Of a stretch of 64,000 nucleotides of DNA, positions 1-64,000 are shown piece after piece. The stretch is from an uncultured Nitrospiraceae bacterium (lineage in GTDB: Bacteria; Nitrospirota; Nitrospiria; Nitrospirales; Nitrospiraceae). Position 1 is the first letter of the stretch, and each line of letters begins with the position of its first letter. The DNA is taken from contig CAWJWJ010000002.1 in NCBI GenBank assembly GCA_963846575.1, positions 1,440,001 to 1,504,000 of the forward strand. Reading direction: 5' to 3'. The position numbers were made by a program.

Positions 1-3000
1 CGCGACGACGTTATTTCTTTTTCGTGGATCGAGTACTCTTCATGACTCGCGTGACCACGCGCTCGACGTTTCCGATCGCCTTGCCTAGTACGGTCCCGAC
101 GGCCCGGCCAACCTGTTTCGCCTTACGTTTCGTGGTTGCAGGAACGAGCGAGGCCTTTTTGGCCTTGCCGGTGACGGTTTTGACGACCTTTTTGACCTTG
201 GTGCTCGAGGCCCCGGCCGCAGCCTTGGTTTTACGCTTGATGGTATGGGCTGCCGGGCCGACTTTCAGGTGGCCTGCCGTTGATTTTTTTTTCGACGGAG
301 TCCTGGTGGCGCGAGTCGTTTTTTTGGTCGTCGTTTTTTTCAATGTGTCTCCTTTTTTAAGTGATGAGGATCAGTTACCGACAATGGGCTCAAGAATACC
401 AAGTTTGAAAAGGCACACACAACAAAAGATTCTGTCGTCCCGAGATTCTACGATGACGGGGTTGCGTAGGACTGAACGCCCTTGTAGAGTTGACTGAGTA
501 GAACTAGCAGGATCGACGGAAGATTTACCTTCTCTGTTCACGGTGGCCATTCATGAGTTTCCCCTCCAGAATTGAAGACTATGCGCTGATCGGCGACACG
601 CACACCGCGGGGCTCGTGTCGCGTGAGGGATCGCTGGACTGGTTGTGCCTCCCGCGTTTTGATTCCCCCGCATGTTTCGCGGGCCTCCTGGGAACGCCCG
701 ATCATGGCCGCTGGCTCATTACGCCTCAGGGCGAGATCGCCAGCATCCGTCGTCGCTACAGGGGAGACACGTTGGTGCTGGAAACGGAGTATGTGACCGA
801 AAGCGGGACGGCGACCGTCATCGACTTCATGCCGCCTCGCGATCGTGAGATCAATGTCGTGCGAATCGTGTTCGGTAACAGGGGAACCGTGCGGATGAAG
901 ATGGAGTTGACCATCCGCTTCGACTATGGATCGATTGTGCCATGGGTCAGCCATCACAAGCGCCTGCTCAAGGCGGTAGCCGGGCCGGATGCCGTCTACC
1001 TCGACACCGAAGTGGAATTGCGAGGAATAGGATTCTCGACCGTCGCTGATTTTACGGTGACGGAGGGCCAGGAAATTCCCTTCACCCTGACCTGGCGGGC
1101 CTCTCACGATGATCCGCCGAAACCCGTGATCACCGAACGAGCCCTGTCTGAGACCCAGTACTGGTGGGAAAAATGGTCGAGCCGTTGCACCTATGAAGGG
1201 CCCTGGCGCGATGCGGTGGTCCGTTCACTGATCACTCTCAAGGCATTGACCTACGCTCCGACAGGAGGAATCGTGGCGGCTCCGACCACGTCTCTCCCCG
1301 AGCTGCTGGGCGGAACGCGCAATTGGGACTACCGGTATTGCTGGATTCGCGATGCCACCTTCACTCTCTTTTCCCTCCTTGTGGCCGGATACCGCAGTGA
1401 AGCCCAAGCCTGGCGGGAATGGTTGCTGCGGGCCGTGGCGGGGAAGCCCTCCGACTTACAGATCATGTACGGGATCGGTGGAGAGCGGCGCCTGACCGAG
1501 TTGGAATTGAAATGGCTGCCGGGGTACGAGGACTCAACGCCTGTGCGGATCGGCAATGCGGCGTCGGAGCAATTTCAACTCGACGTCTACGGCGAAATTA
1601 TGGATGCGTTGCACCAGGCCAGGGACTTGGGATTGGCGGCGAGTGAAGACTCGTGGCGCGTACAACATGCGCTGATGGATTTTCTCGAATCCGCATGGGA
1701 TCGCCCGGACGAGGGGATCTGGGAGGTGCGGGGGCCCCGGCGGCACTTTACCCATTCTAAAGTCATGGCCTGGGTGGCGGTGGACCGGGCCATCAAAGCC
1801 GTCGAACGTTTCCACGTGGATGGGCCTCTCGAACGATGGCGCGCGCTTCGCGCCACGATCCACGAGCAGGTGTGTCTTGAAGGGTATGACCGGCATCGGG
1901 AGACCTTCGTGCAATATTACGGTTCGACATCCTTGGATGGCAGCCTCCTGATGATTCCTCTGGTTGGGTTTCTTCCTCCCTCCGACCCGCGGGTCCGCGG
2001 TACGCTGCGGGCGATCGAACGCGACTTGACGGAGGACGGGTTGGTCATGCGGTATCGTCCGAGGCAAGACATGGACGGGCTCCCGGGTGGAGAGGGGATG
2101 TTTCTGCCCTGTTCGTTCTGGCTGGTTGATAATCTGGTCCTGGCAGACCGGCACGAGGAGGCTCGGGCCCTCTACGACCGGTTGATCGGATTACGCAATG
2201 ACGTGGGTCTGCTGTCGGAAGAGTACGACTTGAAGCATAAACGGCTGATCGGGAATTTTCCGCAGGCTTTTTCTCACGTGTCCCTGGTGGACTCGGCGTA
2301 TGGATTCACGCGTATAGAAAGCCCATCTGAACATCGGCAGCGCAGCTGACGCGAAGTCAGCCACCTGCATCGGAGGAGAATGTATGAGCGGCAGATTCTT
2401 CTTAGCGGTCACCGCGGCCCTCTCGCTCTCCTGTGCCGCCGTTGTCGATCCTTCCGGTGCCGAGGCAGCCGACCGCCCCTCGCCCGCGGAGACGGCGAAG
2501 GATGAACTGTTCGATCAAGCGCCCGCGGCACAAGGTACGATCGAGCGCTATCTGCTGGACCCCCGTGGTGAAGTGGAAGGACTGCTGCTTGCGAACGGTC
2601 CCTATATGTATGTCACCTCCCGTGCGGCAGAACAGCTGCTGCGAGCTCTCAAGCTTGGAGATCAGGTGCGGGTCTATGGCCGGCCTATTCCAGCGGAAGG
2701 ATTGGTACTACCCGATGTGATCAAAAATCTCACCCGTAGGACTACGTTCATTGTGCCGGTCCGTTTGGACCTGCCGCTGCCGGAACAGGAATCTCGGTTA
2801 TCGGTGACGGAACTGTATGCCTCGGGAACGATTCGCGTCTTGCTCTATCATCCCTTCAAGCACGTGGTGCAGGGCCTTATCCTGTCGGACCAGACGCAGG
2901 TCCGTCTGCCGCTCGATGCAAGTGAGGAACTACGACGCTCGTTTCATGTCGGTGATACGGTGACGGTGAGGGGAAACGGGACTCTGAACCAGTTCGGTCG

Positions 3001-63000: not shown

Positions 63001-64000
63001 CGCTACCCGAGAGGATGTCGAGATATTTCAGGAGTATGGCCAGCGGCCACCCGAGGAGCGACGCATAGGGGATGATGGTGAGGATTCCGGTGAACAACCC
63101 CAGAATAAACCAGTAGCGTATTCCTGTGAGCGCCCATGCAAGCGAATAGAGAATGGCCGAGCCGAGGGCGATCGCGACGCGCCCGCGGAAGAAGCCGCTC
63201 ACCGCTTCGTCCATCCGTCGCGCGATACGGCGGACCTGCGGTCGATATTGGACGGGGATGTAGCGCTTGAGCTCGGTGAGTGCGCTGTCGAATTGCCATG
63301 CGAAGAAGAAAAAATAGATCGGGACCAAGGTGAATGCCAGGACCACGGCGGTCGTGGTGCCGATGACCGCGCCCAGCATACCGAACGCCTGTCCCGTCCC
63401 TGAGAAGAGCGGTCTCAGGATGGAAAGGGGATCTTCCTTGAGGGAGGTCGCAATCGTCGACAGCGGCTCGGAGAAATCACCGAGACTGATGTGATACTGC
63501 TGCGCGATGCTCTCGATGTACCGCGGCACACGCTCGGCAAGCGACTGGACCTGCTCCGCGAGGAGCGGCCCCAACCACGTCACCAGTCCGCCGAAGGTGA
63601 GGACGGAGAGGAGGAGCAGGAGGGAAATCGACAGGGGACGGGGAACGTTCCACTGCTTCTCCGCCTTGGTGATCAAAGGATTGCATAAATAGGCGAGGAG
63701 AAGTGCGGTCAGGACGGGGGTAAACACCCCGCGCAGATAGTATCCAAACCAGAGCAGGCCCAGGATGCCGGTCACCCATAACACATCCCGGACCGGCGTG
63801 ATTTCCCACAGGTGGCGGTCTTGGGCCGGTCGCGGTTCTGCCGCCGCCGTCACACGAACCGCCACATCGCGCAGCATCGGACTTTGCTCCTCCGCCAGCG
63901 CCTCTGGATATTCTGATTTCATCCGCCTGTGATCCCTTTCCCGGTTAGGAGCCTGCGTGAAGCGGCTCAGCTCGCGTCTGTCGCGTCCGCGCACGGCGTA

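Follow-up and report, generated by a model that had tools for sequence, protein, structure and literature searches.

A CTAGG-N6-CCTAG box with activator geometry and its proposed general-stress regulon in Nitrospiraceae

RESULTS

The window analyzed here is a stretch of 64,000 nucleotides from the genome of an uncultured Nitrospiraceae bacterium. Near its start lies RR-A (positions 5775 to 6461, + strand), an orphan NarL/FixJ-family response regulator with the helix KTIEFHK and the candidate master activator of the regulon described below. Tail to tail with it lies a second orphan regulator, RR-B (6610 to 7266, - strand; helix KAVEFHK), its candidate partner. Both proteins match Pfam PF00072 and PF00196 and contain the receiver residues D53, T81, and K103, with the Asp and the Lys being invariant in the orthologue alignments. 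The two share 44% identity, each forms a clade of its own (100/99), and their closest relatives of solved structure are VraR, DesR, DevR, and RcsB.

A 16-bp box, CTAGG-N6-CCTAG, recurs along the window, with two exact copies (at 32704 and 35309; expected, 0.02) and 13 sites with at most one mismatch (expected, 0.87). A conserved box faces RR-B (7437 to 7452, - strand) and has no -10 hexamer at 22 to 24 nt; autoregulation is possible. Next to it, the box CCAGGGCTTCGCCTAG, followed after 23 nt by TAGCGT, constitutes the predicted promoter (7463 to 7507, + strand) of an Fe/Mn-SOD gene (7630 to 8280); in nine orthologous regions, 14 of the 16 box columns are invariant and the spacer diverges. A box followed after 23 nt by TAGGCT (9454 to 9498, + strand) is the predicted promoter of a ferritin-like gene (9789 to 10328) and is kept in relatives. 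In the divergent gap before a 431-aa gene upstream of RR-A, there is a one-mismatch box (4127 to 4142), which on the - strand is followed by TATTTT at 22 nt, and a weaker box with TAGGAT at 23 nt (3980 to 3995, - strand) points toward a DUF3108 gene (3093 to 3944). A two-mismatch box without a canonical -10 (10762 to 10777, + strand) precedes a block encoding CsbD, CsbD, an OMP, DUF1207, and DUF1328 (11120 to 14135); in genome G265, a box with a -10 lies upstream of csbD and DUF1328.

Two orphan hybrid kinases with the architecture PAS-HisKA_3-HATPase-REC, both of the LHDYLAQ clade, are encoded on the - strand (14149 to 17691, 1180 aa; 17877 to 19835, 652 aa). Back-to-back boxes occupy 19915 to 19994: the one at 19945 (- strand, TATGTT at 24 nt) is predicted to drive both kinases, and downstream of the one at 19979 (+ strand, TACTCT at 22 nt), the first called gene lies on the opposite strand. 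A further - strand block (20673 to 27327) encodes a hybrid HisKA kinase, CheR, CheB, and a REC-PAS-HisKA_3-REC kinase of the LHDYLAQ clade (20673 to 22769) and is faced by a box without a canonical -10 (27812 to 27827). Divergent boxes are found at 29044 to 29093 (29044, - strand, TACAGT at 23 nt; 29078, + strand, TAAGGT at 25 nt, PLD/VTT gene). The exact box at 32704 to 32719 (- strand, TAGGAT at 23 nt) lies upstream of a 139-aa gene without a Pfam family, and the one at 35309 (- strand, TAGCTT at 23 nt, HAD hydrolase gene) is overlapped by a second box at 35321 (together 35309 to 35336). A further divergent pair (39759 to 39896), with boxes at 39759 (- strand, TAACGT) and 39881 (+ strand, TAGGCT at 22 nt), precedes a run encoding Ku, topoisomerase IB, CBM48/amylase, glycogen debranching, and DUF72 proteins (40220 to 46946). 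Lastly, a box with TACAGT after 23 nt (55612 to 55656, + strand) lies before genes for an OMP, an Slp lipoprotein, and LigD (55924 to 59940).

Genome-wide, the exact palindrome occurs 20 times against 0.13 expected, while each other spacer from 0 to 24 gives 0 to 4 exact sites. Among 5-Nk-5 palindromes (k of 0 to 20), it ranks first, with ranks 2 and 3 being extensions of the same palindrome. All 20 exact boxes and 76 of the 81 with at most one mismatch are intergenic, as judged by the borders of our own simple gene caller; since control spacers yield 4 to 18 such intergenic sites each, about 12 of the 76 are attributable to chance. These counts bear out the genome-wide survey's note on this DNA, which had named this the strongest palindrome, lying wholly between genes, with about 70 intergenic sites, and had warned that its reversed-pattern control is uninformative; this holds for the bare palindrome, and the control is usable for the directional pattern. 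The directional consensus is CTAGGG-N5-CCTAG: among 44 seeds, position 6 is G in 38 and its mirror position is C in 12. Eight exact TAGGG-N4-CCCTA sites are present in the genome. Two other origins were rejected: a repeat or mobile element, because the flanks are unrelated between sites, and an artefact of CTAG composition, because the excess is specific to spacer 6 in the spacer controls. CTAG itself is depleted genome-wide (2649 versus 4051) and mostly intergenic. An Rfam scan of eight sources at the gathering score gave no match.

A TANNNT hexamer is found 22 to 24 nt downstream of 44 of the 76 intergenic boxes, starting 22, 23, or 24 nt after the box in 7, 26, and 11 cases, respectively, and at any other offset in at most 5. 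At 22 to 24 nt, the background rate is 4.1% for random intergenic points, and sites with other spacers have the hexamer in 21 of 234 cases. All but two of the 44 (42/44) face a next gene on the same strand, and a degenerate -35 lies downstream of the box (T and T in 25 and 22 of the 44). The hexamer is absent at this distance from 32 boxes, among which are the ones facing RR-B and the CheR/CheB operon and the one upstream of the CsbD block. The palindromes TGTGA-6, TTGAT-4, and GTATC-6 have no comparable spacing peak, so that the first two are usable only as negative controls and not for calibration. A matrix of box plus -10, trained on 25 sites outside the island, had 85 matches in the genome (83 intergenic, 81 same strand; shifted-spacer controls, 3 to 15), and the promoters that it predicts are mostly upstream of general-stress genes. 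The pattern box-N23-TANNNT occurs 2 to 25 times per genome in all 13 genomes of the genus (control, 0 to 3). As judged from the spacing peak and the shifted controls, the box lies directly against the -35 position with a constant spacing to the -10, which is class II geometry. Because of this fixed spacing and the orientation toward the next gene, we infer an activator site centered near -43.5, a value that assumes a start site 7 nt after the -10.

SOD, hemerythrin with the long catalase, trehalose/glycogen enzymes, YtxH, KaiC, RsbR, and PAS kinases, all listed as targets by the survey, are confirmed by Pfam, as are the ferritin-like protein, BON, and STAS. Among the targets, oxidative functions are represented by SOD, the long catalase, and ferritin, osmotic functions by trehalose/glycogen genes, and NHEJ by Ku and LigD; the marker genes CsbD, YtxH, BON, DUF1328, and YflT are among them, together with hemerythrins, CBS proteins, a protoglobin kinase, and a hibernation-factor-like protein. 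The stressosome genes for PF14361 plus STAS and for STAS lie behind a box promoter, and the last gene of the operon encodes an LHDYLAQ-clade kinase; the RsbT and RsbX labels in this operon are presumptive. Two listed targets fared less well. For the proposed Dps/CsbD block, the ferritin-like gene does have a box, but no NCBIfam model, Dps included, matched its product at 1e-20, and CsbD has only the two-mismatch box. Support for the 6S RNA as a target is poor: the candidate reaches 40.3 bits against an Rfam cut-off of 46.4 and has a promoter of its own (TTGACT-18-TATCGT), and the nearby box lacks a -10 at 22 to 24 nt toward it. Furthermore, CsbD is present in 15 of 40 family genomes without the regulator pair, so stress genes need not be under the box. 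The 94 proteins scanned outside the window include no target with a role in nitrate respiration.

Regulator presence was called with the profiles A2 and A3, since a DNA pattern for [TA][VI]EFHK over-counts (3 of 20 loci, L019, L020, and L023, held no regulator). Within the order, an RR-A orthologue (at least 329 bits) is present in 37 of 151 genomes and RR-B in 35, convergent with RR-A in all 35; two genomes have RR-A without RR-B. Of the 28 family genomes that have the pair, 19 contain at least five box promoters; of the 40 that lack it, none does. The contrast is kept within genera g1, g2, g5, and g6. Nine of the 28 pair-bearing genomes have fewer than five strict-pattern promoters (G289 has none), as does G266 of the sister family f2, again with none. 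Other EFHK-type matches are found in 32 family genomes that lack the pair; 22 of these have no promoter, and none reaches five. The survey's statement that the regulators are in 0 of 27 f2 genomes did not hold, the pair being present in 7 of 66, some with perfect boxes, although family codes may differ between the analyses. Six of the 22 LuxR proteins of the genome have a KT(V/I)E(F/Y)H-type helix, including four further KTVEFHK paralogues in kinase-regulator operons, and with six paralogues of a common helix, sequence cannot single out the binder. The helix type that led the survey to name six likely binders is supported, but regulon size is tracked by the convergent pair and not by all six. 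The pair, the kinases, and many sites lie in one island that is gained or lost as a unit, so that their co-distribution is partly co-inheritance, and the genomes are kin.

The genome encodes 16 orphan HisKA_3 kinases that are paralogues of one another and have PAS/GAF inputs. They close operons for stressosome, KaiC, MEDS, and CheR/CheB proteins; eight of them lie behind box promoters. Their LHD[YH]L[AQ]Q pattern is present in 28 of 28 pair-bearing versus 6 of 40 pair-less family genomes and in all 7 pair-bearing f2 genomes, and among the 28 pair-bearing family genomes, its number correlates with promoter count (rho, 0.65).

A scan of a species-genome collection covering all prokaryote species gave 124 box loci. 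A LuxR HTH is encoded in the flank of nine (five in Acidobacteriota and one each in Burkholderiales, Gemmatimonadales, Mycobacterium, and Gaiellaceae), and all nine helices are KT(V/I)E(F/Y)H, versus 6 of 22 LuxR proteins of the genome and a rough baseline of 12 of 3595; the search profile was from this clade and may favor it. A cassette of kinase, response regulator, box, and REC protein recurs in Acidobacteriota and Nitrospirales. At single-regulator Nitrospirales loci, the box directly follows the regulator in 8 of 13 cases, 6 of the 8 having been picked after a box was seen nearby; at Acidobacteriota regulator loci found by protein, a box lies within about 1.5 kb in only 2 of 6 (one genome). 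Acidobacteriota targets are only partly stress-like, and a phylum-wide spread there was rejected, since matches of any kind occur in 22 of the 151 genomes of the class and only G304 has at least 10 per strand. The tally includes one match in the unpublished G401, on which nothing here depends. C occupies the mirror position in 39 of 51 Acidobacteriota sites versus 9 of 25 Nitrospirota sites (P = 0.0009), and no RR-B orthologue was found in 151 Acidobacteriota genomes. No LuxR gene lies within the 12 kb examined around a Caulobacter box match.

DISCUSSION

We propose that the box defines a regulon run by RR-A/RR-B with orphan kinases as its inputs, and we assign this explanation as a whole a probability of roughly 0.7. 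The box would be bound by NarL/FixJ-family regulators that carry a KT(V/I)E(F/Y)H recognition helix and, since it ends where the -35 begins, a phosphorylated dimer is predicted to bring sigma70-family RNA polymerase to promoters whose -35 is poor, by class II activation. About 75 promoters in the genome, mostly of general-stress genes that are presumably stress induced, would use it. That the box is an activator site of this regulator clade is very probable; here, the survey's proposal of a regulon with a KT(V/I)EFHK NarL-type binder is supported by evidence that does not depend on how the motif was built, namely, the -10 spacing, the conserved footprint, the helix beside the box in other phyla, and rival factors that do not track the sites, and its word "operator" is narrowed to an activator site next to the -35. 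Control chiefly by the tail-to-tail pair is probable. It is somewhat favored by the data that the 16 orphan kinases transfer phosphate to RR-A/RR-B and so feed the box promoters, a "kinase funnel" in which the eight kinases behind box promoters would provide positive feedback. The four KTVEFHK paralogues in kinase-regulator operons would use the same box locally. The asymmetry of the box is a hint that RR-A and RR-B might act on it as a heterodimer, which we suggest tentatively; the asymmetry could instead stem from a sigma contact. The parts are ordinary, a NarL-type activator and a class II site; new relative to the survey are the activator geometry, the pair that tracks regulon size, and the 16-kinase input side.

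It is conceivable, if unlikely, that there is no master and that the six KT(V/I)EFHK paralogues read the box as homodimers, each with its own kinase, the regulon being their joint output. The common helix, the boxes directly after single regulators, and the four strict promoters retained by each of the pair-less genomes G054 and G291 fit this reading, yet no pair-less genome with EFHK-type matches reaches five promoters, most have none, and the large orphan kinase family tracks the pair. Similarly, the box could be read correctly here and the regulon answer a single condition (oxygen limitation, desiccation, or dormancy, as with DosR). The hemerythrins, CBS proteins, protoglobin kinase, hibernation-factor-like protein, and PAS kinases among the targets and an alternative-complex-III-like cluster in the island would suit such a response; we nevertheless regard it as improbable, given the breadth of oxidative, osmotic, NHEJ, and marker genes and the many, diverse inputs.

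A different binder, namely, a CRP/FNR-family factor, a LuxR-only or KTVETHR protein, or an RpoS-like sigma, is very unlikely. The layout of CRP sites is likewise 5-N6-5, but with a CRP/FNR site at -41.5, the end of the box would lie 21 nt upstream of the -10, a distance at which no sites were counted. Four other LuxR proteins of the genome have a TVE[A/T/V]HR-type helix, but the TVE[AVT]HR pattern is found in 146 of 151 genomes regardless of sites, and the box neighbors in other phyla are LuxR proteins. The genome does encode an RpoS-like sigma, below the curated cut-off; at 1e-90, such a sigma is found in 60 of the 68 genomes of the family and in none of the 66 of f2, yet f2 genomes carry box promoters. 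Least credible is a repressor operator, a nonregulatory repeat, or a CTAG artefact: the intergenic bias of the depleted CTAG and the box before RR-B with no -10 at the usual distance could be cited for it, whereas the spacer-specific excess, unrelated flanks, conserved footprint, and position upstream of, and not over, the degenerate -35 speak against it.

General stress responses driven by sigma factors include SigB/RsbRST, EcfG/PhyR/NepR with many HWE kinases, and RpoS. They share with the proposed regulon the markers CsbD, long catalase, trehalose/glycogen, Ku/LigD, and YflT, a stressosome, and many orphan kinases acting on one switch, but here an activator palindrome with a sigma70-type -10 takes the place of an alternative-sigma promoter. 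Among 8 of the 13 sigma-region-2 proteins of the genome (the other 5 being four ECF-sized proteins and one of 420 aa), none matched the SigB models TIGR02941 and TIGR02980 above cut-off. In mycobacteria, DosS/DosT-DosR combines a NarL-family regulator, HisKA_3 kinases, about 50 genes, and a TAGGG-like half-site; the DosR box is longer, with wider half-site spacing, and the system has two kinases and is hypoxia specific. DevR scores no better than VraR or DesR against the regulators. As for NreC, we take its helix to be KTVEAHK and its site to be TAGGG-N4-CCCTA, the inner 14 bp of the box; neither sequence was found in the literature searched. The survey's label "NreC-type" holds as a resemblance, but NreBC has a single regulator, an adjacent Fe-S kinase, and nitrate-respiration targets, whereas here no kinase adjoins the pair and no nitrate or nitrite reductase was seen among the targets.

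In the available parts of the reports on staphylococcal NreB/NreC (PMC8139620, PMC5694512), this NarL-type activator is said to bind a "GC-rich palindrome." The FixJ site at fixK, TAAGTAATTTCCCTTA, as given in an excerpt of PMC4999443, is also 16 bp long, has an AGGG/CCCT half, and contains an A/T core of 4 bp; it differs in its outer bases (TA..TA versus CT..AG) and serves a tiny regulon under one oxygen-sensing HisKA kinase, whereas the candidate kinases here are HisKA_3 and the targets are broad and not fixK. In Pseudomonas fluorescens, the CrbR motif occupies -52 to -36, immediately upstream of an RpoD promoter, and is an imperfect inverted repeat needed for activation by a LuxR-family regulator; it differs in sequence from the box and, in the excerpted text, concerns four acetate genes and one kinase, whereas the regulon proposed here has about 75 stress promoters under two regulators and 16 kinases (CrbS/CrbR ACTU motif; PMC5715377). 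The RcsA-RcsB and BglJ-RcsB heteromers, with the box TaAGaatatTCctA, likewise join FixJ/NarL-type partners on an asymmetric box with one common half and have stress targets, as far as the consulted sections of PMC3950696 go; RcsA and BglJ are auxiliary, whereas RR-A and RR-B both keep the receiver Asp, Thr, and Lys, and their heteromer is putative. In the literature searched, whose scope excluded subscription papers and supplements, we found no description of the box or regulon in Nitrospira, and the portions seen of PMC8115632, PMC6606698, PMC3333781, and PMC4682653 contain none.

Nitrospira, including the complete ammonia oxidizers, drive nitrification in soils and treatment plants, and their gene regulation is almost unstudied. 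The sequence yields a complete, testable circuit with its sensors, regulators, DNA site, position of the promoter, and targets. It supplies a Gram-negative stressosome and a KaiC protein with a proposed output and provides in the pair a predictor of lineages with a large stress program. The correspondence between helix and box would also make it possible to predict, in further uncultured phyla, the genes under regulators of this class. If right, this stress switch is built differently from the known sigma-factor switches. A far broader generalization, which we consider doubtful, is that Nitrospirales possess a further general-stress architecture beside RpoS, SigB, and EcfG. In it, as many as 16 paralogous HisKA_3 orphan kinases, connected to stressosome, KaiC, MEDS, and CheR/CheB modules, would all signal to RR-A and RR-B acting as an obligate heterodimer, and this heterodimer would switch on about 75 ordinary sigma70-type promoters with no dedicated stress sigma involved; the architecture would have grown from a portable kinase-regulator-box-receiver cassette, with a KT(V/I)E(F/Y)H-to-CTAGGG-N4-CCCTAG code across several phyla. 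FixJ-like proteins with the helix KTVEFHR flank the box analyzed here in Propionivibrio and in one Burkholderiales genome. Box matches also occur in Streptococcus oralis.

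A predicted promoter built around the CTAGG-N6-CCTAG box

The 16-bp palindrome CTAGG-N6-CCTAG, here referred to as the box, ranks top among the genome's 5-Nk-5 palindromes, with 20 exact copies against 0.13 expected and 0 to 4 at the remaining spacer lengths; the window holds 2 exact copies (0.02 expected) and 13 with one mismatch (0.87 expected). With genes called by our own hexamer-based caller (3595 confident genes), all 20 exact sites lie outside genes, as the genome-wide survey's note had stated, as do 76 of the 81 one-mismatch sites. Since other spacers yield 4 to 18 intergenic sites, the excess is around 64, close to the "about 70" of that note. 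Gaps between convergent genes hold only 4 of the 76. Exact boxes are present in 27 of 35 other Nitrospiraceae genomes (0 to 23 per genome); beyond this family, 6 of the 165 genomes searched have them.

Once the 76 sites were oriented, a TANNNT hexamer emerged at a fixed distance, starting 22 nt after the box 7 times, 23 nt 26 times and 24 nt 11 times, and at any other offset at most 5 times (both strands counted). At 44 of the 76 sites the hexamer thus starts 22 to 24 nt away; the corresponding share is 4.1% for randomly chosen intergenic positions and 21 of 234 for sites with another spacer. Of the 44, 42 aim at a same-strand gene. No such -10 peak was present for the other palindromes examined as a comparison. 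Directly 3' of the box lies a weak -35 hexamer (T and T in 25 and 22 of 44). Given this fixed distance, the box spans approximately -51 to -36 relative to an inferred start site, and this arrangement indicates that it is part of the promoter, in a predicted activator position. The position resembles that of the CrbR motif, which, in the available part of the report, lies at -52 to -36, abuts an RpoD promoter and is required for activation (PMC5715377). At the promoter level, such a mechanism is textbook knowledge.

A box-plus-hexamer matrix was built from 25 of the 44 sites, leaving out those inside C2:1.41-1.58 Mb, and gave 85 matches. Of these, 83 are intergenic and 81 face a gene on their own strand; nine shifted-spacer controls gave 3 to 15 intergenic matches. 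The held-out island contains 25 of the matches, in a test that falls short of full independence because the seed sites have one common consensus. Across 9 orthologous regions, the SOD promoter keeps 14 of its 16 box columns unchanged, while the spacer has diverged.

The sigma set of the genome comprises RpoD, a second group-2-like factor, an RpoS-like match below the cut-off, RpoH, FliA and ECF factors, and no SigB match was found among the 8 of 13 sigma-like proteins scanned. An RpoS-like sigma factor is an unlikely driver, as it does not track the sites, occurring in 60 of the 68 family genomes and in none of the 66 sister-family genomes; box promoters also occur in sister-family genomes lacking an RpoS-like match.

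Predicted targets

The window has the content of a typical general-stress island, encoding GH15, Fe/Mn-SOD, ferritin-like, two CsbD, DUF1328, Ku, topoisomerase IB and LigD proteins, glycogen and trehalose enzymes, ASRT and a TPP enzyme. Outside it, we scanned 94 proteins encoded by the first or second genes behind predicted promoters in fetched loci and by a few neighbors, with 10 missed; gene names are our interpretation of Pfam domains. These proteins include hemerythrin and a long catalase, RsbR and STAS, KaiC, YtxH and BON, DUF3309, DUF6496, GlgC-, GlgB-, GlgX- and TreS-like enzymes, an S30AE protein, EgtB/EgtD-like proteins, CFA synthase, YCII, DoxX, MEDS proteins and numerous kinases and receivers. 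The general-stress regulon proposed earlier is supported and sharpened at the level of predicted promoters. Its 6S RNA target is weak: the 6S-like Rfam matches (L090, C2:1549834-1549908; L091, C1:244871-244951) are below the cut-off, and the box points away from the candidate, which has a -35/-10 of its own. Both loci contain the motif GGGAAGCCTGAA and fold as a long hairpin, and they are possibly two 6S paralogues.

Within the island, a cluster at 46964-55525 (-) encodes a multiheme cytochrome c, a molybdopterin subunit, 4Fe-4S, NrfD and ActD proteins and two cytochrome-bd-subunit-I-like proteins, and is faced by no box promoter with a -10. At 19979-20030 (+), a box-plus-hexamer promoter aims into a 680-nt gap whose sole ORF is weak (65 aa); it is possible that it serves a small RNA or small protein.

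A candidate binder

The genome encodes 22 LuxR-HTH proteins, and the six with a (T/A)(V/I)EFHK recognition helix (EFHK regulators) form one clade (95/96). Scanning a species-genome collection for CTAGGG-N5-CCTAGT-N21-23-TANNNT yielded at least 124 loci; among the matches listed, 46 were from Acidobacteriota, 24 were labelled Nitrospirota and 54 were others. A LuxR HTH lay within the 300-nt flank in 9 of the 124 matches listed (Acidobacteriota [five], Burkholderiales, Gemmatimonadales, Mycobacterium and Gaiellaceae), and all nine had KT(V/I)E(F/Y)H, in a search whose profile was built from the EFHK clade itself (rough baseline in the genome, 12 of 3595). This supports the earlier suggestion that NarL-type regulators with a KT(V/I)EFHK helix are the probable binders. 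In longer loci from two Acidobacteriota genomes, a cassette of HisKA_3 kinase, regulator, box with -10 and lone receiver was seen, and its regulator-box-receiver portion recurs in a third Acidobacteriota genome and in Nitrospirales. The Acidobacteriota regulators group inside the EFHK clade (SH-aLRT 97, quick tree), and in Propionivibrio and Saprospiraceae the box adjoins KTVEFHR and KTVEAHR regulators. As counterevidence, a box lies within ~1.5 kb in only 2 of the 6 Acidobacteriota loci identified by protein, and the box is rare in the Acidobacteriota class (22 of 151 genomes). LuxR proteins with TVE[AVT]HR are unlikely binders, as this pattern occurs in 146 of 151 genomes and does not track the sites.

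The NreC box is TAGGG-N4-CCCTA. In the available parts of two reports, the NreC site is described merely as a GC-rich palindrome (PMC8139620, PMC5694512), and the FixJ site, given as TAAGTAATTTCCCTTA in the accessible portion of another, has the same length as the box and one AGGG/CCCT half in common with it (PMC4999443).

Islands with 4 to 8 near-perfect boxes were noticed in two Acidobacteriota genomes (L216-L221; G304, G302), preceding GH63/MGH1-like, DUF3300/DUF2950, AI-2E, OmpA, MscS, OprB, DUF481 and DUF892 genes; they constitute a predicted separate small regulon using the same code. In two sister-family genomes with few boxes elsewhere (G260, G294), loci L017 and L021 have a kinase followed by two tandem regulators with an exact box after each, and 3 to 4 exact boxes per 14 to 16 kb. 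Conserved box-plus-hexamer matches also occur in Caulobacter (L106, L125, L141) and Streptococcus oralis (L144, L170, L188, L215); in Caulobacter, the match stands before a gene for a LysM protein whose C-terminal domain is VgrG3-like, and the 12 kb read contained no LuxR gene.

The RR-A/RR-B pair and its candidate kinases

Two EFHK regulators in the window, RR-A (5775-6461) and RR-B (6610-7266), have no kinase neighbor; each of the four others follows a HisKA_3-type kinase of its own, in which the His context differs. RR-A and RR-B share 44% identity and belong to two distinct orthologue clades. RR-B was found in 35 of 151 Nitrospirales genomes, tail-to-tail with RR-A in every case, and RR-A without RR-B in 2 of 151, plus 2 borderline paralogue matches. 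The pair loci read (16 and three more) are surrounded by stress genes or boxes. The reported absence of the regulator from the sister family (0 of 27) is not supported, as 7 of 66 genomes there carry the pair. Among family genomes, 19 of the 28 that carry the pair have at least five strict-pattern promoters, against 0 of the 40 that lack it, a statistic inflated by kinship and coinheritance of the island; the contrast persists inside four genera, and 9 of the 28 have fewer than five. CsbD occurs in 22 of the 28 and 15 of the 40.

With the -10 setting its direction, the box is asymmetric: position 6 is G in 38 of the 44 seeds, and the mirror position is C in 12 of 44 (74 and 22 in the matrix set of 83). 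Combined with the strict pairing of the two genes, this is reminiscent of RcsA-RcsB and BglJ-RcsB, which, in the available part of the report, have boxes with one half in common (PMC3950696), and hints at an RR-A/RR-B heterodimer. Sigma contacts could also produce the asymmetry. The mirror C is present in 39 of 51 Acidobacteriota sites versus 9 of 25 Nitrospirota sites (P = 0.0009), and no RR-B orthologue was found among 151 Acidobacteriota genomes.

HisKA_3 kinases partner NarL-family regulators as a family rule. Sixteen kinases, three of them in the window, have the phospho-His context LHD[YH]L[AQG]Q in common; the scanned members are hybrid HisKA_3 kinases carrying PAS or GAF domains, a receiver regex matched in 14, and a fifteenth has a receiver start. 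They are the final genes of stressosome, KaiC, MEDS and CheR/CheB operons, and 8 of the 16 lie in units downstream of a box promoter with a -10. The pattern occurs in 28 of 28 pair-bearing and 6 of 40 pair-less family genomes (G293 has 4) and in all 7 pair-bearing sister-family genomes, and genomes with more copies of these kinases tend to have more promoters (rho = 0.65, n = 28). From family rules and codistribution only, we infer phosphotransfer from these kinases to the pair. Another protein behind a box promoter (1875 aa; L038:3069-8693, C1:106066-111693) combines HisKA and HisKA_3 kinase modules with two receivers.

Our literature searches found no description of the box, of a Nitrospira stress regulon, or of a NarL-type regulator pair that drives a general-stress output and is itself controlled by a large family of orphan kinases. 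In the boldest reading, to which we give about a one-in-three chance, up to 16 orphan HisKA_3 kinases wired to stressosome, KaiC, MEDS and CheR-CheB modules would signal to an obligate RR-A/RR-B heterodimer acting at ~75 sigma70-type promoters without a dedicated stress sigma factor, with a cassette origin and a multiphylum helix-box code.

Other palindromes and ORFs

A second palindrome, GTATC-N6-GATAC, has 14 exact copies in the genome (2.2 expected), 11 of them intergenic (e.g., C1:612717, C1:616554, C1:616576 and C2:964062), and no fixed-distance -10. Near a contig end (C2:2892640-2892770), four AT-rich intergenic copies of GTACT-N15-AGTAC are spaced 32 to 37 nt apart. Lastly, a putative ORF in an Acidoferrales genome (L222:4186-6327) fuses a KdpD sensor domain with CBS and MgtE domains.
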